From a virus, in IMG/VR virus record IMGVR_UViG_3300020027_000005, positions 1-64,000 of that record: a DNA stretch of 64,000 bases; one strand, given 5' to 3'. The position numbers and the translations under genes are program-made. Below are positions 4,578 through 18,636 of the stretch, in pieces; the stretch's first letter is position 1; the number at the start of each line of letters is the position of its first letter. The notes under the pieces are model-generated. The model saw nothing but the letters and a program-made list of their open reading frames with translations, did no database searches and had not been told where the DNA came from.

Positions 4578-6848
4578 ATGGCGATGATCGCGCACCGCTT
4601 GAACTTGCGGTGTCTCATCGACGGGATCGAAGTTCCCGTCATCGCAGCCAGGGCCACTTTCTCTGAAGGTGCTCCGGCCACGGCTGAAATCCAGCTGGTG
4701 GCGACGGACGAGGTCTACGACATCCTGCCTCGAGCGTTCGTGACGCTCTTTTTCTACGAGACCTATGACTTCGACCGGACCCCTTCGTCTTCTGTCGAGA
4801 TGCTCCGACTCCCGCCGAAGGACCTCCGTCGTTGGAAACTTCTGTTCTCTGGTGAGTACATCCAGATCTCGTTCCAGAAAGAGGCTGGTGGTCGGGCTTG
4901 CTCGATCGTGTGCGCCGACCTCACGAACTACTGGGACTTCATCAAGCAGTACTACATCAACTTCGCGAACGGAGGCATCGAGCTCTTCGAGAATGCCTTC
5001 CTTGGCGTGAAGAACGATCGCATCAAGAACTACGACGTGATCGGAAAGGACATGGCCTCGAACCTCTTCGTTTGGCTCACGAAGAGCAAGGGCCCGGACG
5101 GGAAGCCGAACATCTACCTCGGAGTCCAGCGAATCCTTCGAGAGATGTGGTTCGCCTCGAGCGATTTCTACGCAAAGGCGTTCAACAGAACTCGGGCAGG
5201 GGATCAGATTGTCGGAGTCCCCGGAGACCAGACAGCTGCGAAACTGTTCCAGCTGGAGTTCTTCAAGAAGTTCATCGAGAACCAGATCGGTGGCGGTGGA
5301 GACGAAGTCACAGCCAGAGGGATGGTTGAAGCGCTTCTCGGGAACGTCTTCCACACCTACGTTACCGTGCCCTGTCCCTTCTTCGACAGGACTGGGAAGG
5401 CTCGGGGATTCTCTCCGACTTCTGGCCAGGCCCAGGACGATGCCCTTCTCTCGGAGAACATCGACAGGAGCAACTCGTGGCCGGAATCGTCACTTAACTC
5501 TACCATCATCAAGCCCGACACGTGGTTCACGATGCCGCCAGCTTGCAACGTGGTTTTCCCGCACCAGTACACGAGTATTTCGTTTCAGCGGAACTTCCTG
5601 CAAGAGCCGACTCGGATGTTCTTGCGGACGAACTTGCTGTTCGGCGGGACGAACGACAAGTGGCTCACCGAGCGGTTCTACGCCCCGGACTTCGAGACCT
5701 TCAACCAGCAGCTCTACAAAGAGGGCGGCTACTACCGTCGGATGTCCTCGACCCTTCTGGAGCACGAAGAGTTCGTCGGCATCAATGCAGTTCAGGCCTG
5801 GACTTCGGACATGGGAGCCTACGCCCAGAAGGGGAAGCGTCGGGAGTACCTCGCCCGAGTGGCGGACTACCTGTTCTGGAAAATGAGGTTCGCCCCGCGG
5901 TCGGCGAACGTCTCTGGACCTTTCAACCCGAACATCGTTCCGGGGTACCCAGGTCTCGTCATCAACAATGTCTCCAGGCCGGGACAGGCGACGAAGCATT
6001 ACCTCGGGAACATCCAGACGGTCACCCATGTGATTTCCCAGGCCGAAGGCGGCTGGACGCATTTCACGATGGCGGGTGCCCACGTCCATGACGAGACGAT
6101 CGATTTCGACAAGAAGGGTCGGTCTCTAGAGGAGGTGGCGAATCGTGGAGCTGATGGCTTCATCGATGACCGGTACGATTCGACCAGGATTGGTCCCGAG
6201 GTCTACCAGACCCTTTTCGGGTGCGACAGCATCTTCGAGACCTACCTGACCACCGGAACGGGTGGAGATGATCCGCTCTCCCTCCGGCTGAGCGCTCTCC
6301 AAGCTGCAGGTGCGGGCGACACCATCCTCTCTGTGGAAGCGATTCACGGGCTGTACCAGACGGCGGTCCGGGAGAAGATGGACCTCAACGCCTTTTCGCA
6401 GTCCATCTCCTGGCGTCCGAAAGCCAACATGCTCGAGATGCTGGGAGTCCAGGTTCTTCAGGCTTCCGGAACAGGCGCTGTCGTGACGGACCTCATCGAC
6501 TTCAACAAGCTCAACGATGAGGATCCGGAACTGGTCGTCAATGACGGGTTCTTCGCCTCCTGCACAGATCCGGAAGCTTCAACGACTGTGGATGCGACTT
6601 TCGTGGCAGTGAAGTCGAGATCGGTCGGGGTCACGACGACGACTTCGATTCCGGAGATCTCGGAGAGTGTCGGAGACGCGGACGAAGAACGCATCATCCA
6701 GTCGGCCTCGACCGTGACCTCTACGACCTACAAGACGGTGACCGAGAAGTCGACTGGGAACTATGAGCTCGCTGCCCATCTCGAAGCCCGTCGGGCTAAG
6801 GTTCTGGCGTACACTGAGAGCCTCAAATACCGGGGTCTTCGGGGATGA
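4578..6848 (+). CDS. Putative baseplate hub protein (gp27/GpD-like)
   Basis: N-terminal IDGIEVPV...LFSGEY...CADL; late segment ANVSGPFNPNIVPGYPG...YLGNIQTVTHVIS...THFT resembles hub proteins; GGAG RBS. Confidence 0.55.
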   Translation: MAMIAHRLNLRCLIDGIEVPVIAARATFSEGAPATAEIQLVATDEVYDILPRAFVTLFFYETYDFDRTPSSSVEMLRLPPKDLRRWKLLFSGEYIQISFQKEAGGRACSIVCADLTNYWDFIKQYYINFANGGIELFENAFLGVKNDRIKNYDVIGKDMASNLFVWLTKSKGPDGKPNIYLGVQRILREMWFASSDFYAKAFNRTRAGDQIVGVPGDQTAAKLFQLEFFKKFIENQIGGGGDEVTARGMVEALLGNVFHTYVTVPCPFFDRTGKARGFSPTSGQAQDDALLSENIDRSNSWPESSLNSTIIKPDTWFTMPPACNVVFPHQYTSISFQRNFLQEPTRMFLRTNLLFGGTNDKWLTERFYAPDFETFNQQLYKEGGYYRRMSSTLLEHEEFVGINAVQAWTSDMGAYAQKGKRREYLARVADYLFWKMRFAPRSANVSGPFNPNIVPGYPGLVINNVSRPGQATKHYLGNIQTVTHVISQAEGGWTHFTMAGAHVHDETIDFDKKGRSLEEVANRGADGFIDDRYDSTRIGPEVYQTLFGCDSIFETYLTTGTGGDDPLSLRLSALQAAGAGDTILSVEAIHGLYQTAVREKMDLNAFSQSISWRPKANMLEMLGVQVLQASGTGAVVTDLIDFNKLNDEDPELVVNDGFFASCTDPEASTTVDATFVAVKSRSVGVTTTTSIPEISESVGDADEERIIQSASTVTSTTYKTVTEKSTGNYELAAHLEARRAKVLAYTESLKYRGLRG

Positions 6849-8614
6849 GCCGTTGGATGGAGAAGCTGTCTGCCTCGATCCCCGTTGGGGAGAGACAGAC
6901 AATTTCGCCTCCTCCAGACCTTCCGCATATTCGACAGTTGATTCGGGAACTGGCGAAAACTGCGGAGACTGGTGGGCACTGGAGAAAGCTCGATCCGGGA
7001 CAGGAGGGTCACGGCCAGGGCGGAAGTCAGGAGGTGGGCCGAACCTGGGTTCATCGGGACAACACGTTGCCCACGGCCGAGCTCAAGCCGCACCAGATGG
7101 ATTTTCAGAAAGCTGTCACAGACATGGAAGATACGGGCGGGATTATCGCTGCCCATGGAACCGGAACCGGGAAGACCTTCAGCGCCATCAATGCTTTCGA
7201 GAAGCTGAAGGGTCTGGGTAGGGCTGAACGGGCTCTCGTCATTACCCCTTCAGGGTTGCGAAACAACTTCCTGACCAAGGGCATTCAGAGGTTCACGACC
7301 TCGAAGGGTCAGATCATCTCTAGGCCTACCGAACTCTCTCCGGACACGGAGTACGCCATCGTCTCTTACGATGCGTACCGGAGGCGTCCGCAGGAGTTCA
7401 TCAAGGCCTTCAAGCCCGACACCATCATCGCTGATGAGGTTCATCGGGCCTCAAACCCAGATTCGAAGACCTTTCAGGCGATGCAAGAGGGGAGACGTGA
7501 AGTAGACCGCTTCATGGGTTTGACTGCTTCCATCACCCAGAACAAGCCGGATGAGATCGTCCCTCTACTGGAACTCACGACGGGAGGGAAATCGGACATC
7601 CCCTCCAAAAAAAGCTTCAGAAAACACCACATCTCCACGACCCAGAAGCCTGGAAAAGGCATCTTCGGAGGGAAGACTTACGAGGAGAACCTGATTCAGC
7701 GGGTCCTTCTGAAGTCCACGGTCGGAGCGAACATCCACTACGTCGAAGACTTGGATGCTTCCGAGAAGCCCCAGAAGATCGTCGAGTCGATCCAGGTTCC
7801 GATGTCCGGAGAGCAGATCGACCTTTATCGAATGTCGATGAAGGGGGTCGATCCTGTCATCGTGAAGAAGATCAAGGCTGGAGAACCTGTCTCACAGAAG
7901 CAGGCCATGGAGTTGTTCACCCGACTCCTGCGAGCTCGACAGGTCTCGAACAGCCTGAATTCCATCGACCCGTCAATGGCTCCGGAAGAAGCTGCTCGAC
8001 GGACTCCGAAGATCAAGCGCATTCTGGATGATGCGGTCGACCACATCGGGAACACGTCCGACGGCCAGGTCATCCTCTACACGAACCTGGTCCACGGCGG
8101 AGTGGACGTTCTCGCAGCCGGTCTAAAGGATCGAGGGATTCCATTCGGCGTCTTCGCCGGGAAGGGAGTCAAAGGGATGACCGAGGAAGTTCGGCAGGCA
8201 GCTGTCGAAGACTACCTTGCAGGCCGAAATCGGGCGATCATCATCACGGGGGCGGGGGCTGAAGGTTTGTCTCTCGGGAACACGACGATGGTCCAGCTCG
8301 TGGATGGCCATTACAATCCCGAGCGAATCGCACAGGCCGAGGCTCGCGGAATCCGTGCAGGTGGGCTTTCGCAGCGGCCTATCGAGGAACGGAAGGTTCA
8401 GGTCAAGAGGTACGTCTCTTCTCTTCCGAAGAGCTTCTGGCAGACCATCACTTTCCAGCCTCCAGAGAAGGGCGTGGAAGAGTGGGTCTACCTCACCGCC
8501 GAGCGGAAGAATCGGCTGAACAGACAGCTTCGTGATGTTCTCGCAGAGCGAACCGCTCACGAGAAGAAACAACGAGATTCCGTGTTGTACCGTACGTTCG
8601 GAGGCGGCCCATGA
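6845..8614 (+). CDS. SNF2/SWI2-like SF2 helicase/ATPase
   Basis: Walker A AHGTGTGKT, IIADEVH, motif III LTAS, AGAEGLSL, motif VI QAEARGIRAG. Confidence 0.9.
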   Translation: MSRWMEKLSASIPVGERQTISPPPDLPHIRQLIRELAKTAETGGHWRKLDPGQEGHGQGGSQEVGRTWVHRDNTLPTAELKPHQMDFQKAVTDMEDTGGIIAAHGTGTGKTFSAINAFEKLKGLGRAERALVITPSGLRNNFLTKGIQRFTTSKGQIISRPTELSPDTEYAIVSYDAYRRRPQEFIKAFKPDTIIADEVHRASNPDSKTFQAMQEGRREVDRFMGLTASITQNKPDEIVPLLELTTGGKSDIPSKKSFRKHHISTTQKPGKGIFGGKTYEENLIQRVLLKSTVGANIHYVEDLDASEKPQKIVESIQVPMSGEQIDLYRMSMKGVDPVIVKKIKAGEPVSQKQAMELFTRLLRARQVSNSLNSIDPSMAPEEAARRTPKIKRILDDAVDHIGNTSDGQVILYTNLVHGGVDVLAAGLKDRGIPFGVFAGKGVKGMTEEVRQAAVEDYLAGRNRAIIITGAGAEGLSLGNTTMVQLVDGHYNPERIAQAEARGIRAGGLSQRPIEERKVQVKRYVSSLPKSFWQTITFQPPEKGVEEWVYLTAERKNRLNRQLRDVLAERTAHEKKQRDSVLYRTFGGGP

Positions 8615-9231
8615 TCCCGTTCAAGTTCTTGAAGGCCGCCAATGTCTCCGTCGGAGGTCAGACCGTCGAAGCCCCGGGTTCCCAGAACATGCCGGGAGCT
8701 GGGTACAAGGTTCCGGCTGGAGGAGCTGATATTCCAGGAATGTCGATCCACTGCCTGTCCTGCGGGAAGAAGAACGAGAAGGGCGCTCTTCAGTGCAAGT
8801 ACTGCCACAACGACCTTTCTCGAATCGCTGAAGATCCGAAGAAGACCGAGGATGCGGAGTACCCGGACGGAGGGGCTCCAGGGGTCGAGGCGGCTCTTCA
8901 AGATACCAATCACGACATGGCGAAGTCCTCGGCCGTAGCAACGGAACTCGCGAAGCAGGTGATGGGAGGAGCCTCCGCACTGACGGCGAGTGTAGGAGCC
9001 TGGAAGATCGGGAAGGGAAGTCGTCAGGGTCTGAAAGAGGAGCGAAAGACCGAGGCCGAGAAGCTGGTCATGGAAGGAAAGCTCCCGGAGACCGAACTCA
9101 CGAAATACCAGCACCTGATCGAGAAAGTGGCTCGGTCTGGGAATCCGATTCACAACCTGAGGGCCGCCCTCAAGAAGTTGAGGAACTCCTCGGGCAAGTT
9201 CCGAGCGAGCATGGTTTTCGGCCCGAAGTAG
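8611..9231 (+). CDS. Hypothetical protein with zinc ribbon
   Basis: CLSCG-x9-CKYC; ATGA coupling to the helicase. Confidence 0.75.
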   Translation: MIPFKFLKAANVSVGGQTVEAPGSQNMPGAGYKVPAGGADIPGMSIHCLSCGKKNEKGALQCKYCHNDLSRIAEDPKKTEDAEYPDGGAPGVEAALQDTNHDMAKSSAVATELAKQVMGGASALTASVGAWKIGKGSRQGLKEERKTEAEKLVMEGKLPETELTKYQHLIEKVARSGNPIHNLRAALKKLRNSSGKFRASMVFGPK

Positions 9232-9253
9232 TGCTACTCTCGAACGGACAGTT

Positions 9254-9269
9254 CAGACCCTAGGGTCTG
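9254..9269. promoter_or_regulatory. Perfect 16-bp intergenic palindrome (candidate operator)
   Basis: CAGACCCTAGGGTCTG is its own reverse complement and lies in one of the few intergenic gaps. Confidence 0.4.
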
Positions 9270-9309
9270 TCGGACAGCACTTCTGCTGGTACCGCTGTCG
9301 GGAGTGAGC

Positions 9310-9942
9310 ATGTCGAGTCCGAAAGGTAAGGCGATCCTCCAAGGCATCACGGGCCACGTCGTTCTCGGCTGGTTCACCCGCGAGTTTCCTCGTCTCGTGA
9401 ACCAGATCATCTCTTCGTTCCAGCACCGGAACGAGGTCGTTTCGGGTGGTGTGGTCACTGCCGGGACCGTCACCGCTTCCGCTCTCGGCCTGTCCGTCAC
9501 TGCAGTCGGTCTGATTCTGAACGGTCGGATCAAGGCGGCTCTCGGAGCCCTCGCGAACGTCGACTTGTTCACCACGGCTGGGAACGTGGCACAGCCGATC
9601 TACACGAACGGTGCGACCGCAGCTGCCATCTCGCTGGCCACCGACGAGATCGCTCACGTGGCGATCATCGCCTGCAATTCCGGCCAGGACGGAACGGCAG
9701 TCGACACCGACAACGGAGCTCCGCTGTACTTGGCGGTCGTGAACGGCACTGCGTCGACCTTCGCCGCCCAGACCGGTCCTCCGACGAGTGTGCAGATCCA
9801 GGCGGCTCTCGAGGCTTCGACTTCGAAACACGCGGGTGTGACGGGCTGGGTCTGGCTCGCTTCCGTCGTGTGGGACGAGAACAGCGCCTCCCCGACGGGC
9901 GTGGTCACGCTGAATCGGAACAACGTCGTCCAGGCCCTCTGA
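9310..9942 (+). CDS. Putative virion structural protein
   Basis: Ala/Thr/Gly/Val-rich beta protein; GGGAG RBS; strongly biased codons. Confidence 0.6.
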   Translation: MSSPKGKAILQGITGHVVLGWFTREFPRLVNQIISSFQHRNEVVSGGVVTAGTVTASALGLSVTAVGLILNGRIKAALGALANVDLFTTAGNVAQPIYTNGATAAAISLATDEIAHVAIIACNSGQDGTAVDTDNGAPLYLAVVNGTASTFAAQTGPPTSVQIQAALEASTSKHAGVTGWVWLASVVWDENSASPTGVVTLNRNNVVQAL

Positions 9943-9955
9943 TTCGGAGGGCTAG

Positions 9956-11620
9956 GTGTCCGTCTTCCTGACGGCCTTCTCTCTGGAGCTCATGAAGAGC
10001 GCCGAGGAGAAGAAAGAACAGAGGCCCAGCTACCTTCACTCGATGGTGGCTGGGATTCCTGTTCTCACAGGTCAGGCACTCTCGGACATTCCAGAAGGCG
10101 CGATCGAGGGGACTATCGAGCACTCGATCCGCAACAAGAAGTTCACTCCACGGGTGGACGTTGGAGCTCTTCGGTTCGGAAGTCGAATGGCTGCTGGACT
10201 TGGGACGACTCCGGTTTTCTTGAGCGGAATGCACGACATCACCAATGCGAAGTCCAAGAAGGACGAGCACGTGGGGATGGCGAAACTTGTTGCGGCCGGT
10301 GGTGCTTATGCAGGGGCTCGGGGAGCTATCGAAAGCAAGTTCTCCAAGGACATCGCGAAGAATCCGAAGTCCTGGAGATACGTCGCAGCTCGGACAGGGA
10401 TGGGCGTTGGCGGAGCCGCTCTCACCGGTTTGACTGTCGGACGTGCACTCCGACACGAGAAGAAAGAGCCGACCTTCCGAAAGAAGTACGTCGAGCCAGC
10501 CCTTGTCGGTGCAGGTCTTTCCTCCGGAAAGGCACTCATCGAGGAAGTGGCTCTCGAAGGAGGGAAGGCACTTCGAACTGCAGAAGGTCGCCGAGGTGTT
10601 GTCGGAAAGGCGGTTGGAAAGGCAGGAGCCGGAGCTGTCGGAACTCTCCTCCTCTCCGAGATCATGAGAAGAGCCCTCAAGCCGAAGTCTGGGAAGGAGA
10701 AGAAGTCCGCAGCCTCCATGGGTCCGACTGCAGAGCTGAACTCCCAGACCGATGACTGGGCCAAAAAGGCGAGCACAGAAGAGCTTCTGAAGTTCTACAA
10801 GGAACTCGAACTACGAGGCGGAGAACGGTCTCCTTCAGCCCGAGCGGCCTTCTACCCACTTCATGACGAACTCTCGAAGAGAGGAGTGTCTCTTCCGAAA
10901 CTCAAGGAGCGGGAAAACACAACCGGCTTGGTTCGAGCCCCGAATCGCTCGAGCCTTGTGGCACCCGCCGCTCTGCTCCTCACTCCGACTCTCGCCTACT
11001 CCGCTCTCACCACTCTCCCTTTGACCGACCGAGATCGGGTGCTCACGGACGCACTCGATCGGACCTACGTGCAGGGGAAGATCAACGTCGTGAGACACAG
11101 CAACGACGGAATTCTTCTGAGGCGTGGAGACGGCTTCGCAATTCCGGATACTGAAACTATCGGAGTTGCGGCGGAAACTGATCCAGCCGAATTTGCACAC
11201 GAGATTGGGCACGTTCGTCGTGGAGATATCCGAGGCAGGACCATCGGACACGCTGGAACGGTCGTGATCAGCAGAATCTCGAATGCTGCAGTCGCGTTCC
11301 TGAGTCTCGGAATCTTGGCCACGACTTTCGATCGCTCTTTCGCAACCAAGGAAGAGCTGGAGTCTAAGAGCCGGGCGGTGGCTGCAATCGGAGTCGTCGG
11401 AGCTGCGCTCTCTTCCCCGGTCCTGGCGGAAGAGGCGATGGCCAGTGTCAAGGCAACGAAGTATCTCTCGTCGGCTGGGGCTTCGACTTCTGAAATCGCA
11501 GGGAAAGTGGTCAAGAATCTCGGACCTGCTTTCGCTACATACGCAGCACCTGTCGCTCTTCCTTTCTTGATTGCTCGGATGCTGAAGAAGCGTTCACAGG
11601 CAGAGCCGGAAAAGGCCTAG
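9956..11620 (+). CDS. Membrane protein with C-terminal zinc metallopeptidase (YugP / Zn_peptidase_2-like)
   Basis: FAHEIGH, two hydrophobic helices, then EEAMAS (third ligand) and AFATY. N-terminal half has repeated glycine-zipper helices. GGAGG RBS. Confidence 0.75.
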   Translation: MSVFLTAFSLELMKSAEEKKEQRPSYLHSMVAGIPVLTGQALSDIPEGAIEGTIEHSIRNKKFTPRVDVGALRFGSRMAAGLGTTPVFLSGMHDITNAKSKKDEHVGMAKLVAAGGAYAGARGAIESKFSKDIAKNPKSWRYVAARTGMGVGGAALTGLTVGRALRHEKKEPTFRKKYVEPALVGAGLSSGKALIEEVALEGGKALRTAEGRRGVVGKAVGKAGAGAVGTLLLSEIMRRALKPKSGKEKKSAASMGPTAELNSQTDDWAKKASTEELLKFYKELELRGGERSPSARAAFYPLHDELSKRGVSLPKLKERENTTGLVRAPNRSSLVAPAALLLTPTLAYSALTTLPLTDRDRVLTDALDRTYVQGKINVVRHSNDGILLRRGDGFAIPDTETIGVAAETDPAEFAHEIGHVRRGDIRGRTIGHAGTVVISRISNAAVAFLSLGILATTFDRSFATKEELESKSRAVAAIGVVGAALSSPVLAEEAMASVKATKYLSSAGASTSEIAGKVVKNLGPAFATYAAPVALPFLIARMLKKRSQAEPEKA

Positions 11621-11647
11621 GTACTGTACACTGCAGGCGGAGAAAGC

Positions 11648-12964
11648 ATGACGATCAAGGCCGGTGCCCGCAGGTTCGACATCGAAGCGGTCGTCCAGTT
11701 GGCGGGGACTGCGAGAAACCTCGACACCGTTGTGCACTTCTTCGACGAAGAGCTGGAGAAAATCGCTGCGGGTGTTGGTGCTGCTGCCGGTGAGGGGGTG
11801 GAGAAGCTGCTCCAAGCTCTTAGAGGACGAGGTGCTGCTCGTGCAGCTGCGAAGGTGAAAACTCCGAATCCTTCAAACAGAGCTGCTCTCGAACAGGCAC
11901 TCGACAAGGTTCGGCAGCAGGGTTCGACCTCGGCCTACAACGCGACCCCGGCCGGTCACATCGAACGACCCACCGGAGCTACTCCCACAGGTTTCCAGAC
12001 TCCCATGATGGCCCCTCCGAGAGAGGGTCCTCCGGCTCGGTCTGCGCTTCCTACCATGGCTCCGGATACGACCCAGAGAATCTCCCCTCCCCTGGGAGCA
12101 TCTCCGGCACTTTCGACTCCTGCACCTTCGTTGCGAGCCCCGGCTCCTGCACCGGCCCCGCAACCTGCGTCGGCAGTTCATGCAACGCCGCCTCCGACTC
12201 CCCCGCCTGTTGTTCCACCTCCGGTAGCGCCGGCTCCGGCCCCCGGTCGTGTTGCGACAATCTCCCAGACGCCTGTTGCGCCTCGACCGGCTCCGGTGGC
12301 CTCTGCAAGTGCTGCCGGAACCCAGGGCCCGGCCCAGGTTGCAGTTCCGAAAACCCCTCCTCCTTCTCCGACCCCCGGCCCGTCGACTCTGGCTCCTCCG
12401 ACCCCTTCGATTCGACCACCCGAAGGTGGACTCCCCCGTCCGACAAATCCGCAAGCGGTCCCTCCCCCGGCCCCACCGCCATTGCCCCCTCCCGCCCCGA
12501 CGGGACCCGCGTACGCTCCTGCGCCAACGTCGGGTCCCGTTCACGGACCGGCTCCTCTCGGAGCTACTGCAACTCCGGCCGCTACCGGAGCGATGGCGGA
12601 TCTCAAGACCGAAGCGCAGGCACTCCTCAGTGGAAACAGGGTGGGAGAGCAGCGCGTCCTCAACACTTCAGGTGGCTCAGTCGAACAAGCTGGAAATGCC
12701 ACCCCTTCGAAGAAGGCCCCGAAAGGTCCCTCTACACAAGGGCGTCCGGCTCCTCCAGTGCCAAAACCCGTTCCGACCACCGCGGCACCAGGAACTCCGT
12801 CTCCCTTCATCGACCAGGCGAAGGCCCAGGCGATGATGGGACAGAAGTGGTTTCAGGATCTCCCTCCCGAAAGGAAGCAGCAGATTCTGATGGCAGCAGG
12901 GATGGCTGGAACTGGTGCACTGGGTCTCGGAGCAGGCGTGGTCGGCTCAAGCCTCATGAACTAG
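11648..12964 (+). CDS. Pro/Ala-rich protein with C-terminal glycine-zipper membrane anchor
   Basis: Long P/A/T low-complexity core; C-terminal AAGMAGTGALGLGAGVVG; N-terminal FFDEELEKIAA. Confidence 0.8.
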   Translation: MTIKAGARRFDIEAVVQLAGTARNLDTVVHFFDEELEKIAAGVGAAAGEGVEKLLQALRGRGAARAAAKVKTPNPSNRAALEQALDKVRQQGSTSAYNATPAGHIERPTGATPTGFQTPMMAPPREGPPARSALPTMAPDTTQRISPPLGASPALSTPAPSLRAPAPAPAPQPASAVHATPPPTPPPVVPPPVAPAPAPGRVATISQTPVAPRPAPVASASAAGTQGPAQVAVPKTPPPSPTPGPSTLAPPTPSIRPPEGGLPRPTNPQAVPPPAPPPLPPPAPTGPAYAPAPTSGPVHGPAPLGATATPAATGAMADLKTEAQALLSGNRVGEQRVLNTSGGSVEQAGNATPSKKAPKGPSTQGRPAPPVPKPVPTTAAPGTPSPFIDQAKAQAMMGQKWFQDLPPERKQQILMAAGMAGTGALGLGAGVVGSSLMN

Positions 12965-12973
12965 GGAGCGGAG

Positions 12974-13495
12974 ATGAACGAATTCGAACTGCACGGCCGG
13001 GTTGTCGCACAGGCCTTCTTCCTCGAGCTCGAGAAGATTGCGATGGCCGATCCGATGGACATCGTTCACGGTCTTCGAGCAAACCAGGCTCTCCGGAGTG
13101 CAGCCTCTCCGAGTCTTGTGCAGAAGCTCAAGCCGGGAACGGGGAGCTTCTTCGGGGCCGTGAAGGACAAGGTCCGTCTTCACTTGAAGGGACGGAATGT
13201 TCGGAAGAGTGCGATCAAGGACCTCGATAGCGCTTCCAAGTACACACCGGGGGCGGATGACATCGAGGACAACGCCAACCTCGCCAGGGCTGCTCGAGGT
13301 CGGGAAGCCGAACATGAACTTCACGGGAAGCCGGGTGAGTCGAGCTTCTTCGGCGGAAAGAAGAAGAAGGAGCCGGTGAGGGGTCACCGGGCCAGGCTTC
13401 GGGACCTCGCCTTCGGTGCGGGAATCGGTGGAGCAGGCGTGATCGGCACCAGCATGTACCTGAAAGGTGGACAGGCTGAGCCCGGCTACGAGTAA
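12974..13495 (+). CDS. Basic protein with C-terminal glycine zipper
   Basis: N-terminal AFFLELEKIA; C-terminal LAFGAGIGGAGVIG; GGAG RBS. Confidence 0.8.
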   Translation: MNEFELHGRVVAQAFFLELEKIAMADPMDIVHGLRANQALRSAASPSLVQKLKPGTGSFFGAVKDKVRLHLKGRNVRKSAIKDLDSASKYTPGADDIEDNANLARAARGREAEHELHGKPGESSFFGGKKKKEPVRGHRARLRDLAFGAGIGGAGVIGTSMYLKGGQAEPGYE

Positions 13496-14214
13496 TGGAA
13501 AAGGCCGAAAAGAAGACGAGGGCGGCCCAAGAGCTCGAACTCTGGCGCGACTGGAAGGCCAACCCTTCTGACGCCACGCTCGAGCCCTTGATGGCGTCCA
13601 TGCAAAACGTTGTTCAACAGCGGGTGAACCAGTTTCGTGGAGCTCCCGTTCCACCTGCCGCTGTTCAGGGTTTTGCAAACGTCCAGCTCAAAAAGGCCTT
13701 CCATACCTACAGCCCGGACAAGGGAGCTTCTCTCGCGACCCATGCGAACTGGTACTTGAAGAAGGTCCAGACCTTCGTCATCAAGCACCAGAACATCGGG
13801 AAGATTCCAGACCAGCGAGCGAACAACATCGCCGAGTACCGAGCTGCGAAAGAGGAACTCCGAGAGACGCTGGGGATGGAGCCAGACGCTCTCTCCTTGT
13901 CGGAACATCTCGGCTGGAGTCAGCGAGAGGTCGAGCGGATGGAGGCAGAGCAGAGAAAGGACCTCATCGCTTCCAAGAACCCAGAAGCTGACCAGCTCGC
14001 CGAAACCTACTCGAACCGAGAGAGGGAAGTTCTACGGTACATCCACTACGACCTGACCCCGGATGAGCGCCTGGTCTTCGAGTACACTCTGGGGTTGTAC
14101 GGAAAGCCGCAGATCTCGGCCACCGAGATTTCGAGAAGGATGAGTATCTCTCTTCCGAAGGTCAGCCGAATTCGAGCGAAGATCGACAAGAAGCTTCGTG
14201 CCCGGGGTGTGTAG
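13495..14214 (+). CDS. Sigma70-family RNA polymerase sigma factor (group 3, FliA/SigF-like size)
   Basis: Region 2 (LKKAFHTYSPDKGASLATHANWYL), region 3 (LRETLGMEPDALSLSEHLGWS), region 4 HTH (LTPDERLVF...SATEISRRMSISLPKVSRI). Confidence 0.88.
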   Translation: MEKAEKKTRAAQELELWRDWKANPSDATLEPLMASMQNVVQQRVNQFRGAPVPPAAVQGFANVQLKKAFHTYSPDKGASLATHANWYLKKVQTFVIKHQNIGKIPDQRANNIAEYRAAKEELRETLGMEPDALSLSEHLGWSQREVERMEAEQRKDLIASKNPEADQLAETYSNREREVLRYIHYDLTPDERLVFEYTLGLYGKPQISATEISRRMSISLPKVSRIRAKIDKKLRARGV

Positions 14215-14420
14215 TGGCTTTGTCCGCAGAAACCATTACCAACCTCGAGATCGCAAAGATTGCGATTCAGGAGTACCTGGACAACCGTGTGGATGAAATC
14301 GACGACCTCGTCTTCAACCTGAAGGCATACGGGGTCCCGCTCGACTCTCTGTCGGTCAGCACTACGGAAGCTGCGACGGACGAGGCCATGGCCACCATCT
14401 CCAGCCTTCTGGCATTCTGA
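14214..14420 (+). CDS. Hypothetical protein (68 aa)
   Basis: Coupled ORF filling the gap. Confidence 0.65.
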   Translation: MALSAETITNLEIAKIAIQEYLDNRVDEIDDLVFNLKAYGVPLDSLSVSTTEAATDEAMATISSLLAF

Positions 14421-14426
14421 GGAACC

Positions 14427-15017
14427 ATGGAGTCCGTTACTCTCGTCTTTCTCGATTCCATGATCGGAAACCAGGTTGTCCCCAACCTGTTGATCACGGT
14501 CTATGAAGAAGACGGGATTAACCTCGTTACCTATGGACGAACTGGGCCCGACGGTACGGTAGAGCTGCTCGCGCCTGTGGGTAACTACGTCGTCCGAACC
14601 TTCAAGATCGGAGTGACTCCGACAGAAGAGACCTTGACCGTCGAAATCGGGGGAGGTTCTTTCACCTTCTACGTCTCGACCATCCTGGTGGCCCCTCCTC
14701 CCTCTCCGAGGGTTTGTCGGCTCTTCTCGAACTTCGTGTCGTTGAACGGACGGCCTTGGGTTCAGTTCAGACTTCAGGTCTCCAACATGTTCGACCCGAA
14801 GGCGGCAGAGGGTCTCGCGGTCGTCGAGAACACGTTGACCCTCGAGACTGACGCCGCAGGCCATGTGGAGTTCGACGTCGTTCGAGGGGCCAGAATCCGG
14901 GTCACGTTCATCACCACCCCCTTCAGCCGGGAGATCGTGGTTCCGGATAAGGCGGTCGAGAACCTTATGACTGCGCTGGGGGAGTCTACGGACAACTTCC
15001 GTGTTGTTCGGAGATAG
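14427..15017 (+). CDS. Beta-sandwich (carboxypeptidase-regulatory / prealbumin-like) virion protein
   Basis: Two T-x-x-x-G-x-V motifs (RTGPDGTV, ETDAAGHV). Confidence 0.6.
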   Translation: MESVTLVFLDSMIGNQVVPNLLITVYEEDGINLVTYGRTGPDGTVELLAPVGNYVVRTFKIGVTPTEETLTVEIGGGSFTFYVSTILVAPPPSPRVCRLFSNFVSLNGRPWVQFRLQVSNMFDPKAAEGLAVVENTLTLETDAAGHVEFDVVRGARIRVTFITTPFSREIVVPDKAVENLMTALGESTDNFRVVRR

Positions 15018-15025
15018 GAGCCTGC

Positions 15026-17083
15026 ATGCCGATCAATAAGACCATCGCCAGGCTCTATTCCGCATCGCGGAACATGCTCATCAACCCCTACTTCGAGGGG
15101 ATTGACGTCAACCTGGCTGCAGCGAACCTGAACCAAGACTTCCTCCCGGTTCCCCATGGGGATCTCTTTCGGTTCGCCCCTGGTTGGTTCCCCTACGGCG
15201 GAGCCGCAAATGGCGATTACGCTCGCCCCGACACCTACACTTTCTCGACGATCGACAATCCGTTCGCCAACAACACGAGTGGCGAGCGGGTGAACCAGGC
15301 CGAGACGACTTCCGACCAGCGTTACGGGAACGGCATCATCATCGAGCAAGAGTCTGGGAAGGACTTCGGAATCGTCCAGCCCATCCTGCGGGGAGCTGCA
15401 CTCAAGCGGGCGACGAAGGTCCGTATCACCGGGTGCTACCAGATCCTCCAGAACGATGGAGCTGGTGGAATCGGGTCTGATGTTTCCGGGATCCACATCT
15501 ACTTGAAGAAGGAACTTCGGGCGATCAACATCGGAACCGGGAAAGTCGCCGAGGCTGCGTCGACTTCGAGCAGTGTGGATGCGAACACACTCACTTCTCC
15601 AGGAGGAACTACCTGGATTACCGACGGGGTGGCCATCGGGGACACGCTAGTCGTCCCGAACGAGGGCTACTTCACGATCACGAGTGTGGTTTCGGAAACC
15701 AACCTCGATGTGACTCCGAACATGACCCACCCTACCGGGCTCGAGGCCGGGGTCTACGTTCTCGGTCCTCCCTCGGCTACGACGGGTCGGGCAACTGAGG
15801 ACGGTCAGAGAATCGTTCTTCCTCCAGAGACTCGGTTCGTGGCCCATCTCATGCCGACCGATACCGACTTTCTTCACGCAGATGGAGAGGCCGGAATCAC
15901 GGGTACCGAACAACTCATCCGAGCGTACGACTTTCTGGCGGTGGCTCCAGGAGGGAATGATGCGCAGTACAAGCACCTGGTTCTGGGGCCATCTACGGCA
16001 CTTCCTGGGGATCGAAGAGGTTTCCGGAATCCCGAAGTTCTGACGAACTTCACGGCTTGGATTCTCGAAGACCAGGTCGAGACCAGCAACGGGAAAGGCG
16101 ATGTTCTCTTCTCGTCTGACGACTCGGTCGGCGGGACCGTCACCCCGACGGAAGATCTCATCTTCTTCGACGAGATCATTACCCTGAACGAGACCGCACC
16201 GACCAGCACCCAGGGCGAGTACTTTCTGATCATCCAGCCAGTGAAGCCCTCGCTCTCGGCATCGATCAATGGCTCGGTTTCGATCGTGATCTGGGGAGTC
16301 TCGCTTCAGATTCTCGATAGCGCGGAGGAAGGAGAGTCAAATCTCATCACGGAGTTCACTGCCGGTCGTCGGAACTCGTCGGTGAACATGGACGGGTGGC
16401 CTGCGAAGTACCTGGCGTCCTACCCGATCTACATCCCGACGGTGCTACCCCTCAGTGTGAACTTCCGTCAGGGACATGCCGATACCCAGGACGGGAATCC
16501 GGTCTACGCCACCACGAAGTCTTCGAACAAAGGTGTCCCTCAGCCGCCCGTCTTCCGTTTTCGGGATGGAGAGAACCCGGACACCGTCAACGAAGAGATC
16601 TACATCGCAGAGCAGGTTCGCTATCCTCCAGGCCTGGTCGTCGTCGGTGGCGGAGTTCCTGTCGAAGACCGGAGTGCGACGTGGTCCACGAACATGAACC
16701 TTCGACTCATCGAAGGCTTCTGTCCGCCGCCCTACAACGACAGCGATCGTTACCTGGGCGCCTTCCTCACCCACGAAGACTCGCTCGGGAGGCTTGTCGC
16801 AGAGCTGGACATTCTCCCCGCAGCAGCGGACAGCACGGTTCTTCGCTTCGACACCGTCTTCCGAAACAAGATCGGGCTGTATGACGGCGGAGCGGACGGT
16901 GAGGCGCTGGTGAATCTGGAACAGACCAACTTCCAGCGAATGGGAGCTTCGTCCTTGTTCTTCGTGATGGTCACCCCGCTCCACAACGACACCCCCTCCA
17001 CGTCCATCATCAAGCTCCGGGACGGGTGGGTGTACGGGGTCTACGATCCACGCTGGGGCCTGGCCTCCACACACTGGGACTGA
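15026..17083 (+). CDS. Hypothetical virion protein
   Basis: 685 aa; AGGAG RBS; one copy of the shared GVxxGD module. Confidence 0.7.
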   Translation: MPINKTIARLYSASRNMLINPYFEGIDVNLAAANLNQDFLPVPHGDLFRFAPGWFPYGGAANGDYARPDTYTFSTIDNPFANNTSGERVNQAETTSDQRYGNGIIIEQESGKDFGIVQPILRGAALKRATKVRITGCYQILQNDGAGGIGSDVSGIHIYLKKELRAINIGTGKVAEAASTSSSVDANTLTSPGGTTWITDGVAIGDTLVVPNEGYFTITSVVSETNLDVTPNMTHPTGLEAGVYVLGPPSATTGRATEDGQRIVLPPETRFVAHLMPTDTDFLHADGEAGITGTEQLIRAYDFLAVAPGGNDAQYKHLVLGPSTALPGDRRGFRNPEVLTNFTAWILEDQVETSNGKGDVLFSSDDSVGGTVTPTEDLIFFDEIITLNETAPTSTQGEYFLIIQPVKPSLSASINGSVSIVIWGVSLQILDSAEEGESNLITEFTAGRRNSSVNMDGWPAKYLASYPIYIPTVLPLSVNFRQGHADTQDGNPVYATTKSSNKGVPQPPVFRFRDGENPDTVNEEIYIAEQVRYPPGLVVVGGGVPVEDRSATWSTNMNLRLIEGFCPPPYNDSDRYLGAFLTHEDSLGRLVAELDILPAAADSTVLRFDTVFRNKIGLYDGGADGEALVNLEQTNFQRMGASSLFFVMVTPLHNDTPSTSIIKLRDGWVYGVYDPRWGLASTHWD

Positions 17084-17086
17084 TCC

Positions 17087-17908
17087 ATGGACATCTACAA
17101 CGCGGTCGTCGGAAGAGAGATGGAAGTCCCGTTGTGGTTCGGAGTCACCACGGGTCTGACTCTGGCCACTCTCGACTCTGTCGACGCGATTGACGGAACC
17201 GAAATCATCGACTTCGAGGACGACCTCGGTGCAAGCCTCGAAGAAATCGGCGGCGTTCCAGGGTACTATCTTCTGACCTTTGTTCCTCGTAGATCGGGCA
17301 CCCTGTACTTGAACCTCGTAGATGGCGCCGTCGTGAACGAGTTCGTGGTTCAGTCGGTTCTGCCGGTCCCTCCCATGGTGGCAGACCCGTCCATCGAATC
17401 CGACCACACCATCACGGTCCAGGTCGGAGGAGACAACGTTCCGGGAGCGACGGTCCGGGTCTACAACGAAGCAGGGACGACTCTCCTGGCTCGAGGACTC
17501 ACGGATTCCCAGGGACAGGTCACATTCGTGCTCGAGGCGGGTGCGTACCAGACCCGGGTGAGCAAGGTCGGGTACGACTTCGCCAGCGTGAACCCGACGG
17601 ACATCATCGTCATTCCGAACGACAACATCGTTCCGAGGCTGGACGAGATCCTCCCTTCTTCGGCCTCGATCGGAGACACCGTCACCCTGCTGGGCCAGTT
17701 TTTCGACGACGAAGAGTCTGAAGTCATGTTCGGGGCAGCGACTCCGGAACCCGCTCTCTTCGTGAGTCCAGTGACCCGAGCTCTGATGGTGGTGGTTCCC
17801 GCAGGGCTCACCGACCTCGCCATTCCTGTTCGTGTGAGGAAGCCAGACCCGGAGAATCCGGGAGAGTACTTCCTCTCGAATGTGGTGACCCTGACGAGGG
17901 TTCCGTGA
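17087..17908 (+). CDS. Prealbumin-like plus IPT/TIG domain virion protein
   Basis: VPGATVRVY...TDSQGQVTF; PRLDEILPSSASIGDTVTLLGQFF...VVVP is IPT/TIG-like. Confidence 0.7.
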   Translation: MDIYNAVVGREMEVPLWFGVTTGLTLATLDSVDAIDGTEIIDFEDDLGASLEEIGGVPGYYLLTFVPRRSGTLYLNLVDGAVVNEFVVQSVLPVPPMVADPSIESDHTITVQVGGDNVPGATVRVYNEAGTTLLARGLTDSQGQVTFVLEAGAYQTRVSKVGYDFASVNPTDIIVIPNDNIVPRLDEILPSSASIGDTVTLLGQFFDDEESEVMFGAATPEPALFVSPVTRALMVVVPAGLTDLAIPVRVRKPDPENPGEYFLSNVVTLTRVP

Positions 17909-18636
17909 GCGGGAAGGCTCGGACGATCGAGGCACTGGTCGGGGCTGGTGTAGGAGCTCTCGGTGGTGCTGTGGCCGGAGGTCTCTCCTACGAATCCAAG
18001 GACCCAAAGGAGTGGACCGACGAACATGGACTCACCTACGCCCGAGCCCATACGTCAGAGGAGAAAGCCGAACGTCGAAAACGGATGCTCACGGCCGCTC
18101 TGGTGGGTGCTGGAGTCGGTACAGGGGCTAGCCTGGGCGGGAGTGCTTTCCGGCGAATGCATCTGGACAGTGCAGAAGCAGCGGCGGCCCCCGAGCTGAT
18201 CAGAAACCGACTCGGTCATCTTCGAAAAATGGTCGATGAGGCCGAGGCAGGTGTCTCGGATGTCGACCAGTTCGGTCGTCGACTCATGGAACCCGAAGTT
18301 CTGAAGAAGCGGATGGTCCTCCAGGACCAAGAACATGAGTTGCACGGTCTTCTGGGGAAGGCTCGGGAAGCGAGAAGCGACTCGCCCTGGGGCGGCTACA
18401 CGCAGCTGAAGGACAAAGGTCCCCGAGAGGACCTCACCCACGAGGGTCGAGTCAATCGGCACTTCAAGGAGTTGAGGGCCAGACATGGACTCCCCGGGAT
18501 CGTGGACGAGGAGTTCTTTAAGCAGCTCCTCCACAAGAGCGCCAGCATCTCGACCATCCTGGCGGATCTGCCTTCTTCTGCGGGAAAGGCTTTCTTCAGC
18601 GAACTTCGGGAGATCAGCTCCCATGCGAGAGGGTGA
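17905..18636 (+). CDS. Glycine-zipper membrane protein
   Basis: Two ALVGAGVG helices; C-terminal AFFSELREIS. Confidence 0.75.
   Translation: MSGKARTIEALVGAGVGALGGAVAGGLSYESKDPKEWTDEHGLTYARAHTSEEKAERRKRMLTAALVGAGVGTGASLGGSAFRRMHLDSAEAAAAPELIRNRLGHLRKMVDEAEAGVSDVDQFGRRLMEPEVLKKRMVLQDQEHELHGLLGKAREARSDSPWGGYTQLKDKGPREDLTHEGRVNRHFKELRARHGLPGIVDEEFFKQLLHKSASISTILADLPSSAGKAFFSELREISSHARG

Follow-up and report, generated by a model that had tools for sequence, protein, structure and literature searches.

What would lead a phage to place one short peptide near the ends of proteins that otherwise have little in common? The question is raised by the first 64 kb (hereafter the window) of a 76,482-bp IMG/VR phage contig, IMGVR_UViG_3300020027_000005, in which a preliminary description had noticed a recurring motif and had proposed it as a Lys-x-Ala-based packaging or maturation tag. 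The tag, as we call it here, is a real, lineage-wide feature, and we lean towards reading it as a capsid-targeting propeptide resembling that of phage T4, cut after its terminal Ala.

A peptide shared by unrelated proteins of one phage lineage

A strict pattern, [AF]F..[EL]L.[KE][IS][AS], was run in all six frames over the window and the whole contig. It matched five times, in frame and on the + strand, in four genes of the structural block and nowhere else on the contig; 2000 residue shuffles of the 54 called proteins gave a mean of 0.0035 matches and a maximum of 1. These are the five strong copies of the preliminary description, whose account of them as lying near the termini of dissimilar proteins, all four with glycine zippers, holds:

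9974-10003, + strand, AFSLELMKSA, residues 7-16 of a 554-residue protein
11738-11767, + strand, FFDEELEKIA, residues 31-40 of a 438-residue protein
13013-13042, + strand, AFFLELEKIA, residues 14-23 of a 173-residue protein
18514-18543, + strand, FFKQLLHKSA, within the last 41 residues of a 243-residue protein
18589-18618, + strand, AFFSELREIS, within the last 41 residues of the same 243-residue protein

The carriers, none of which has a Pfam or PHROG family, are:

9956..11620, + strand, basic protein of 554 residues (net +24), with leader MSVFLTAFSLELMKSA, several glycine-zipper segments and HEIGH at 11198-11212
11648..12964, + strand, protein of 438 residues, with the tag, a long Pro-rich middle and a C-terminal glycine zipper
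12974..13495, + strand, basic protein of 173 residues, with leader MNEFELHGRVVAQAFFLELEKIA and a C-terminal glycine zipper
17905..18636, + strand, protein of 243 residues, with two N-terminal glycine zippers and the two C-terminal tag copies

All four are net basic and have G-x3-G-x3-G segments of borderline hydrophobicity, and their mutual likeness is confined to glycine-rich low complexity (best pair, the 243- and 554-residue proteins, E 2e-6).

The peptide is by no means peculiar to this contig. A DNA-pattern scan blind to lineage, in which back-translated FFxELEKIA was compared with the 2.9 million viral contigs of IMG/VR, returned 33 matches in 29 stretches, several contigs having two or three. 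The match starts 3-11 codons past the start codon of a small open reading frame (ORF) in 27 of the 33, and the carriers are small, otherwise unrelated and mostly basic proteins. A fused beta-beta' RNA polymerase (Arash/mReC-like lineage) is present in 18 of 21 contigs tested; two of the remaining three are fragments of 16-20 kb, and the third is a relative found through its sigma factor, with no tag in the 20 kb examined. Across five related genomes, E-[LIF]-x-K-I-[AG] occurs in 2-12 copies per genome, against 0-1 in the reversed control. The motif of the preliminary description thus recurs in related genomes as an N-terminal leader throughout the lineage. An extreme is reached in one of them (G001), in which about 20 small genes open with MNxFExGFFDELEKIA and continue into unrelated tails; two minus-strand arrays with near-identical starts, at 34.4-37.6 kb and 47.7-55.6 kb (L045, L046), look like a fast-swapping cassette array of cargo genes. 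Because the codons vary between copies of the tag, selection acts on the peptide.

The 185,579 bacterial and archaeal genomes of GTDB gave 15 FFDELEKIA matches but no leader-type copy; the tag therefore belongs to the phage lineage and does not imitate a host signal. Ten of these matches belong to a tiny element common to ten Nostoc species (L069-L075, L080-L083), whose translation is FFDELEKIAVDKDILS and whose frames span only 22-59 codons; it is probably a conserved element, non-coding or a micro-ORF, with no relation to the phage tag. A full-text literature search for FFDELEKIA, DELEKIA and similar strings found them in no paper.

The tag is retained while the proteins that bear it drift. 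In the nearest relative (G005), which is syntenic with the window and has a helicase 56% identical, the orthologues of the 554-, 438- and 173-residue proteins are tagged at 27-30% identity, their neighbours being 40-56% identical. The first of these orthologues reads MDLERLAFSYELCKIA, and the second has ASFNDEIEKIA at residues 43-51, plus SALNKIA; in the 173-residue family, 12 of the 25 columns invariant among four homologues fall within the first 22 residues. A related-locus search and tblastn found no relatives of the 554-residue protein in IMG/VR or the phage collection. Two further genes of the window, for which copies had also been claimed, lie upstream of the carriers:

6845..8614, + strand, SNF2-family helicase (Pfam SNF2-rel_dom, ResIII, Helicase_C)
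6938-6964, + strand, degenerate leader of this helicase, ending LIRELAKTA, directly ahead of a conserved ETGGHW and the helicase core
8611..9231, + strand, Zn-ribbon protein of 206 residues, with one E-K-V-A word (LIEKVA, 9115-9132) near its C-terminus, a weak candidate site

Taken alone LIRELAKTA is weak, fitting only a loose pattern for which 0.19 matches are expected by chance, but the orthologous helicases have a clear tag at the same place (SFQVEFQKIA followed by ESGGHW in G005, MRRLASSFEKIA in G001, SLWEELEKCA in G002), and the leader is found on the SNF2 helicase in four genomes. The claim for the Zn-ribbon protein fares less well: the short E-K-x-A word is present but is not conserved in the G005 orthologue, which bears an N-terminal LQEMDEIIKTA instead. 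Right after the sigma factor gene, a gene of 68 residues (14214-14420) begins MALSAETITNLEIAKIA, with a tag-like part at 14244-14264; its start may be another short leader ending in K-I-A and missed by the strict pattern.

A logo drawn from 70 non-redundant tags reads [ASG]-F-F-D-E-L-E-K-I-A, with positions t1-t9 strongly conserved and the E and K invariant; 62 of the 70 have A, S or G immediately ahead of the tag. Typically an initial M is followed by 2-12 residues, a small residue and then F-F-D-E-L-E-K-I-A, and in 52 cases the tag starts 2-12 residues past an in-frame ATG. The block closes in K-[ILV]-[AGS], and conservation ends abruptly after the Ala, the next two positions being variable (A18, V8, E7 and others at +1; S16, A8 and others at +2). 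Beyond the tag lies a remainder of median length 113 residues, net positive in 63 of the 70 (median charge +10). Glycine zippers, again borderline in hydrophobicity (KD19 hydropathy 1.35-1.84), occur in 36 of the tagged proteins, and the consensus is amphipathic as a helix (hydrophobic moment, muH, 0.58 vs 0.30 for shuffles). A double-glycine bacteriocin leader, with GG, GA or GS at -2/-1 after E-L-x-x-I, was considered and rejected, there being no GG and the positions after I-A being variable.

The end of the tag recurs in head proteins

Because the contig is without a capsid gene block, relatives were used to examine the link with head maturation. In G002, a complete genome of 178 kb with terminal repeats, the word [ED]-K-[ILVMT]-[AG], which corresponds to the last four residues of the tag, occurs 23 times in the head-module proteins against 3.8 expected (sixfold), never in the tail genes (0.27 expected) and 13 times in all other ORFs against 11 expected. 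The simpler K-[ILVMT]-A is found seven times in a protein resembling Arash gp222 (the gp222-like protein), six times in a Glu/Lys-rich scaffold-like protein, nine times in a head protein of 668 residues and not at all in tail proteins. Four orthologues of the capsid protein have E-K-[ILM]-[AG], then Glu, at residues 23-29. In an alignment of the gp222-like protein from four genomes, K-x-A falls at matching positions: some 30-47 residues into the protein, at the exact end of a conserved domain of 270 residues, and close to the C-terminus. Searches of Pfam and PHROGs gave no match for nine of the ten G002 head-module proteins; the capsid protein matched phrog_2522.

The gp222-like protein is the candidate for the enzyme. 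Its AlphaFold2 model (mean predicted local distance difference test score 81, core >90) aligned in VIA-align with the proteases of varicella-zoster virus (1vzv, Z 10.4), pseudorabies virus (4v08, Z 9.7) and herpes simplex virus 2 (1at3, Z 8.3) and with T4 gp21 (5jbl, Z 8.9), at a root-mean-square deviation of about 3 A over 115-133 residues. Every one of the 28 best structural rows falls in the gp21/assemblin superfamily, unrelated folds reaching Z 5.7 at most; Foldseek E-values for the same model were weak (0.06-0.4). Because the model aligns best to the herpesvirus proteases and T4 gp21, we conclude from structure prediction that the lineage has a capsid protease of the gp21/assemblin type. 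The candidate catalytic residues H119 and S176 are invariant, and H218 nearly so, among 29 aligned gp222-like sequences. The family is large and unnamed, comprising 1111 clusters at 90% identity (E <= 1e-5), and a sequence-profile search of the PDB with it returned only chance nanobody matches. Complex prediction, with an alignment, for the protease domain of G002 (residues 50-290) paired with residues 1-40 of a tagged G002 protein scored 0.01 (mark 0.32), a value that counts neither for nor against an interaction. Versions of the protease of about 1000 residues (P0004, P0022-P0024, P0029, P0030), found as homologues of the G002 protein (L042:8304-10175), carry inteins of PF14528 and PF14890.

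The borders of the putative protease domain and its expected substrates alike carry the word that ends the tag, and we infer that this K-x-A word is the cut site. An F-x-E word also lies inside the tag; we prefer a cut after the Ala to one at the Glu, because conservation ends there and the conserved sequence of the capsid protein and of the helicase starts right after it.

A connection with virions comes from the cultured Salmonella phage Arash, which has homologues of the helicase, portal, polymerase and sigma factor of the window. Arash virions contain the helicase Gp217 in abundance (38 unique peptides and 1148 spectra, on par with the beta' subunit), the sigma factor Gp10 and the glycine-zipper proteins Gp221 and Gp224 (PMC10585845). 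The Arash protein Gp225, which is scaffold-like and rich in K-x-A, adjoins the capsid gene. The "coverage" column in Table 2 of PMC10585845 gives 100% even for proteins identified from two peptides, which rules out sequence coverage as its meaning and leaves it uninformative on N-terminal processing.

The genomic setting of the tagged genes points the same way. In relatives they lie directly upstream of the portal gene, between the protease and capsid genes, or within tail and structural operons, and the cargo domains they encode include InPase (E 1e-45), DUF5661 fusions, a P-loop NTPase and a weak match to a Zn-peptidase. InPase, DUF5661 and others are among the domain kinds found in the "polyvalent" proteins that phages deliver. 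A protein made of DUF5661, an internal tag and a glycine zipper is conserved in two phages (L046:13279-13920 in G001; L034:6995-7912), which shows that a tag can also serve as a linker inside a protein. The HEIGH of the 554-residue protein is kept as HELGH both in its G005 orthologue and in a tagged protein of 254 residues (L017) with a weak Zn_peptidase_2 match (E 3e-5); judging from these sequences, HExxH-bearing proteins of this type look like packaged Zn-peptidase-like cargo. The notion that the tagged HExxH protein is a general processing enzyme was rejected, tblastn finding none in the tag-bearing genomes G001-G004.

In the window phage, whose contig CheckV estimates to be 44% complete, the structural block occupies positions 55-36475, all on the + strand. 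Its order is a 756-residue protein, the SNF2 helicase, the Zn-ribbon protein, a 212-residue protein, the tagged proteins of 554, 438 and 173 residues, the sigma factor, five more genes and the tagged 243-residue protein; only the helicase, the Zn ribbon, the sigma factor and an Ig-like protein received a name from Pfam or PHROGs. A minus-strand replication block follows at 36.5-54.7 kb, and then the portal and a fused RNA polymerase of 2056 residues. In G002 the portal match over two adjacent ORFs of 391 and 712 residues (125597-128911, L041) is confined to their first part, and the RNA polymerase ORF of 2580 residues (129765-137507, L041) has a gap in its match; this portal and polymerase may hold inserts or inteins.

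Proposed addressing and cleavage, and competing explanations

The reading that we favour, with somewhat more than even confidence, is that the tag is a capsid-targeting propeptide of the T4 kind. The amphipathic leader would direct its protein into the assembling prohead, where the phage's own capsid-maturation protease, with the T4 gp21/herpes assemblin fold, would cleave it off behind the Ala of [ED]-K-hydrophobic-A; the capsid protein, the protease and the scaffold-like proteins would be trimmed at such a site as well. The mature and mostly basic proteins would stay in the head and probably exit with the DNA. Among this cargo would be the SNF2 helicase, glycine-zipper proteins and a protein like a Zn-peptidase; relatives would add a P-loop NTPase and an InPase domain. 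The sequences and the model show the tag, its position, its confinement to the lineage, the head-specific enrichment of its last four residues and the protease fold; the targeting, the cleavage, its exact bond and the ejection we infer. The earlier proposal is supported in part. Its core, a Lys-x-Ala tag for packaging or maturation, withstood all of our comparative tests, being favoured by the lineage-wide leader, the word enriched only in the head proteins of a complete relative, the conservation of that word at the N-terminus of the capsid protein and the borders of the protease, and the SNF2 helicase of Arash virions.

Several observations weigh against this reading. Both the gp222-like protease and the capsid gene are absent from the 76-kb contig, and the relatives that supply the link to them are at 36-55% RNA polymerase identity; the head protease anticipated by the preliminary description thus comes from relatives and from a structural model. 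Neither Peptidase_S77 nor Peptidase_S78, the Pfam families of T4-type and HK97-type prohead proteases, had a match in the five genomes at E <= 0.1. Enrichment by gene class, which had also been anticipated, is pronounced in G002, but the window itself shows no enrichment of the K-x-A word. No tag is present on the sigma factor or RNA polymerase of the window phage, though both are virion proteins in Arash. Arash itself has no tag of the FFDELEKIA type in the 131 of its 181 kb that were examined, and its helicase is without a leader yet present in virions, so the tag is not the sole route into the head. Some copies of the tag, moreover, are internal or C-terminal (the 243-residue protein, the DUF5661 fusions), unlike the strictly N-terminal sequence of T4, and the G005 orthologue of the 243-residue protein lacks the C-terminal tags.

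One rival account is that the peptide gives no address and is only an extended recognition site of the protease at a propeptide junction, F-F-D-E-L serving as an exosite contact and the proteins entering the prohead by other means. That the last four residues of the tag equal a word found head-wide, that internal copies resemble linkers between DUF5661 and glycine-zipper modules, and that the Arash helicase is packaged leaderless are all as this account would have it. We nonetheless think it unlikely, if worth serious consideration, since the F-F-D-E part is missing from ordinary head-protein sites and yet is conserved on the cargo as strongly as the cut site, and since an N-terminal stub of 13-20 residues would be purposeless if it were inert before its removal. 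The peptide could also be a docking helix that is never cleaved, kept on the mature protein and binding the capsid interior, scaffold or portal much as encapsulin cargo peptides do; its amphipathic consensus and its occurrence at N-terminal, internal and C-terminal positions would suit such a role. It is rather improbable, given that the last residues of the tag are exactly the word found at the protease domain borders and the capsid protein N-terminus, and that conservation stops after the Ala as abruptly as expected for a scissile bond.

Explanations remote from the virion fit less of the evidence. With glycine zippers of borderline hydrophobicity in half of the carriers, the peptide might be imagined as a membrane-targeting or insertion helix, or as a signal read by a host machine, on membrane proteins concerned with lysis, superinfection exclusion or membrane remodelling. 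Soluble enzymes (SNF2 helicase, InPase, P-loop NTPase) are tagged as well, however, the tagged genes sit in structural operons beside portal and capsid genes, and the bacterial and archaeal genomes hold no leader-type copy that a phage might mimic; we regard a role of this kind as very doubtful. Hardly credible is a functionless relic of gene duplication or cassette recombination. The arrays of about 20 genes in G001, with nearly identical 5' ends, bring it to mind, and a constant 5' end could serve the swapping of modules; but the copies differ freely in synonymous codons, the peptide has been kept in phages with polymerases only 36-55% identical, it is found on non-homologous proteins, and it overlaps the head-specific E-K-x-A word.

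Known systems and the possible meaning of the tag

The closest known system is the capsid-targeting sequence (CTS) of T4 with its protease gp21, and the tag system looks, by analogy, to be of the same kind. As summarized in PMC3012670 and, for Mullaney and Black 1996, in PMC10052503, the CTS of IPI-III and Alt is removed by the prohead protease gp21. Both systems place a short N-terminal peptide on unrelated, mostly basic proteins, and in both the peptide would end at a consensus site of the head protease that is present also in the capsid protein, the scaffold and the protease (here in the relatives only, with a predicted cut site); the protease fold is, according to the model, the same. The peptides themselves differ, FFDELEKIA here and MKTYQEFIAE in T4, as do the sites: the proposed cut falls after Ala in E-K-x-A, and that of T4 after Glu in L/I-x-E. 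In the present system, moreover, a single genome may hold many more carriers (up to about 20), which include a helicase and glycine-zipper proteins; copies can be internal or C-terminal, and the system is known from sequence alone. The capsid proteins of mReC have been reported to resemble T4 gp23, and a protease is not mentioned in that paper (PMC7481178).

The giant phages SPN3US, phiKZ and 201phi2-1 offer a second comparison, their heads being processed by a protease (gp245/gp175) with the motif A/S/G-X-E (PMC10052503, PMC5694885). They, too, are large phages that package an RNA polymerase and many ejection proteins, with a gp21-like protease that acts at a short motif in many head proteins, at multiple sites per propeptide, and on itself. 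Their propeptides, on the other hand, are mostly long (111-254 residues), share no tag and have Glu at P1, their RNA polymerase is split into multiple subunits, and they belong to another lineage. Herpesvirus assemblin (pUL26/UL80a) provides the best structural matches to the modelled protease (Z up to 10.4) and has a similar layout, in which a long extension lies C-terminal to the protease domain and sites fall both where the domain ends and close to the C-terminus. Herpesvirus sites have the form (V/L/I)-X-A followed by S, and Ala at P1 is also the apparent specificity here; the site of the phages, however, is [ED]-K-hydrophobic-A with a variable P1', and no sequence similarity links the proteases. 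We know of no cargo tag system in herpesviruses. Encapsulin cargo-loading peptides are also short terminal peptides, at either end of unrelated cargo, that lead into a shell of the HK97 fold, but they have another consensus, involve no proteolysis and have been demonstrated to bind the shell. The repertoire of SNF2 helicase, Zn-ribbon, InPase (PF18823), DUF5661 and Zn-peptidase is that of the polyvalent proteins of phages and conjugative elements reportedly described by Iyer et al. in 2017; theirs form one giant polypeptide, whereas here the domains are encoded by separate genes or small fusions headed by the tag.

A wider reading would make the tag the cargo-loading code of the lineage, docking proteins in the prohead, cut by an assemblin-like protease with Ala at P1 and so marking a set of ejected proteins readable from sequence, the basic glycine-zipper members inserting into the host envelope and building a conduit or early compartment for the packaged 2056-residue RNA polymerase, sigma factor and SNF2 helicase, so as to permit transcription independent of the host. 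This is a tentative proposal and, taken as a whole, an unlikely one; the role of the cargo in a membrane, conduit or compartment, suggested already in the preliminary description, is speculation to which the weakly hydrophobic glycine zippers are the sole pointer. If the targeting reading is true, the leader would allow the virion cargo of a widespread and almost wholly uncultured phage lineage to be listed from sequence, and a second, independently evolved system of address tags would stand beside the single well-studied example of the T4 CTS, in which the cut seems to follow Ala, as with herpesvirus assemblin, and not Glu. The tag is also a possible packaging handle for engineering once a member of the lineage is cultured, and it offers a hypothesis for how a helicase and other enzymes may be delivered alongside the phage's own RNA polymerase.

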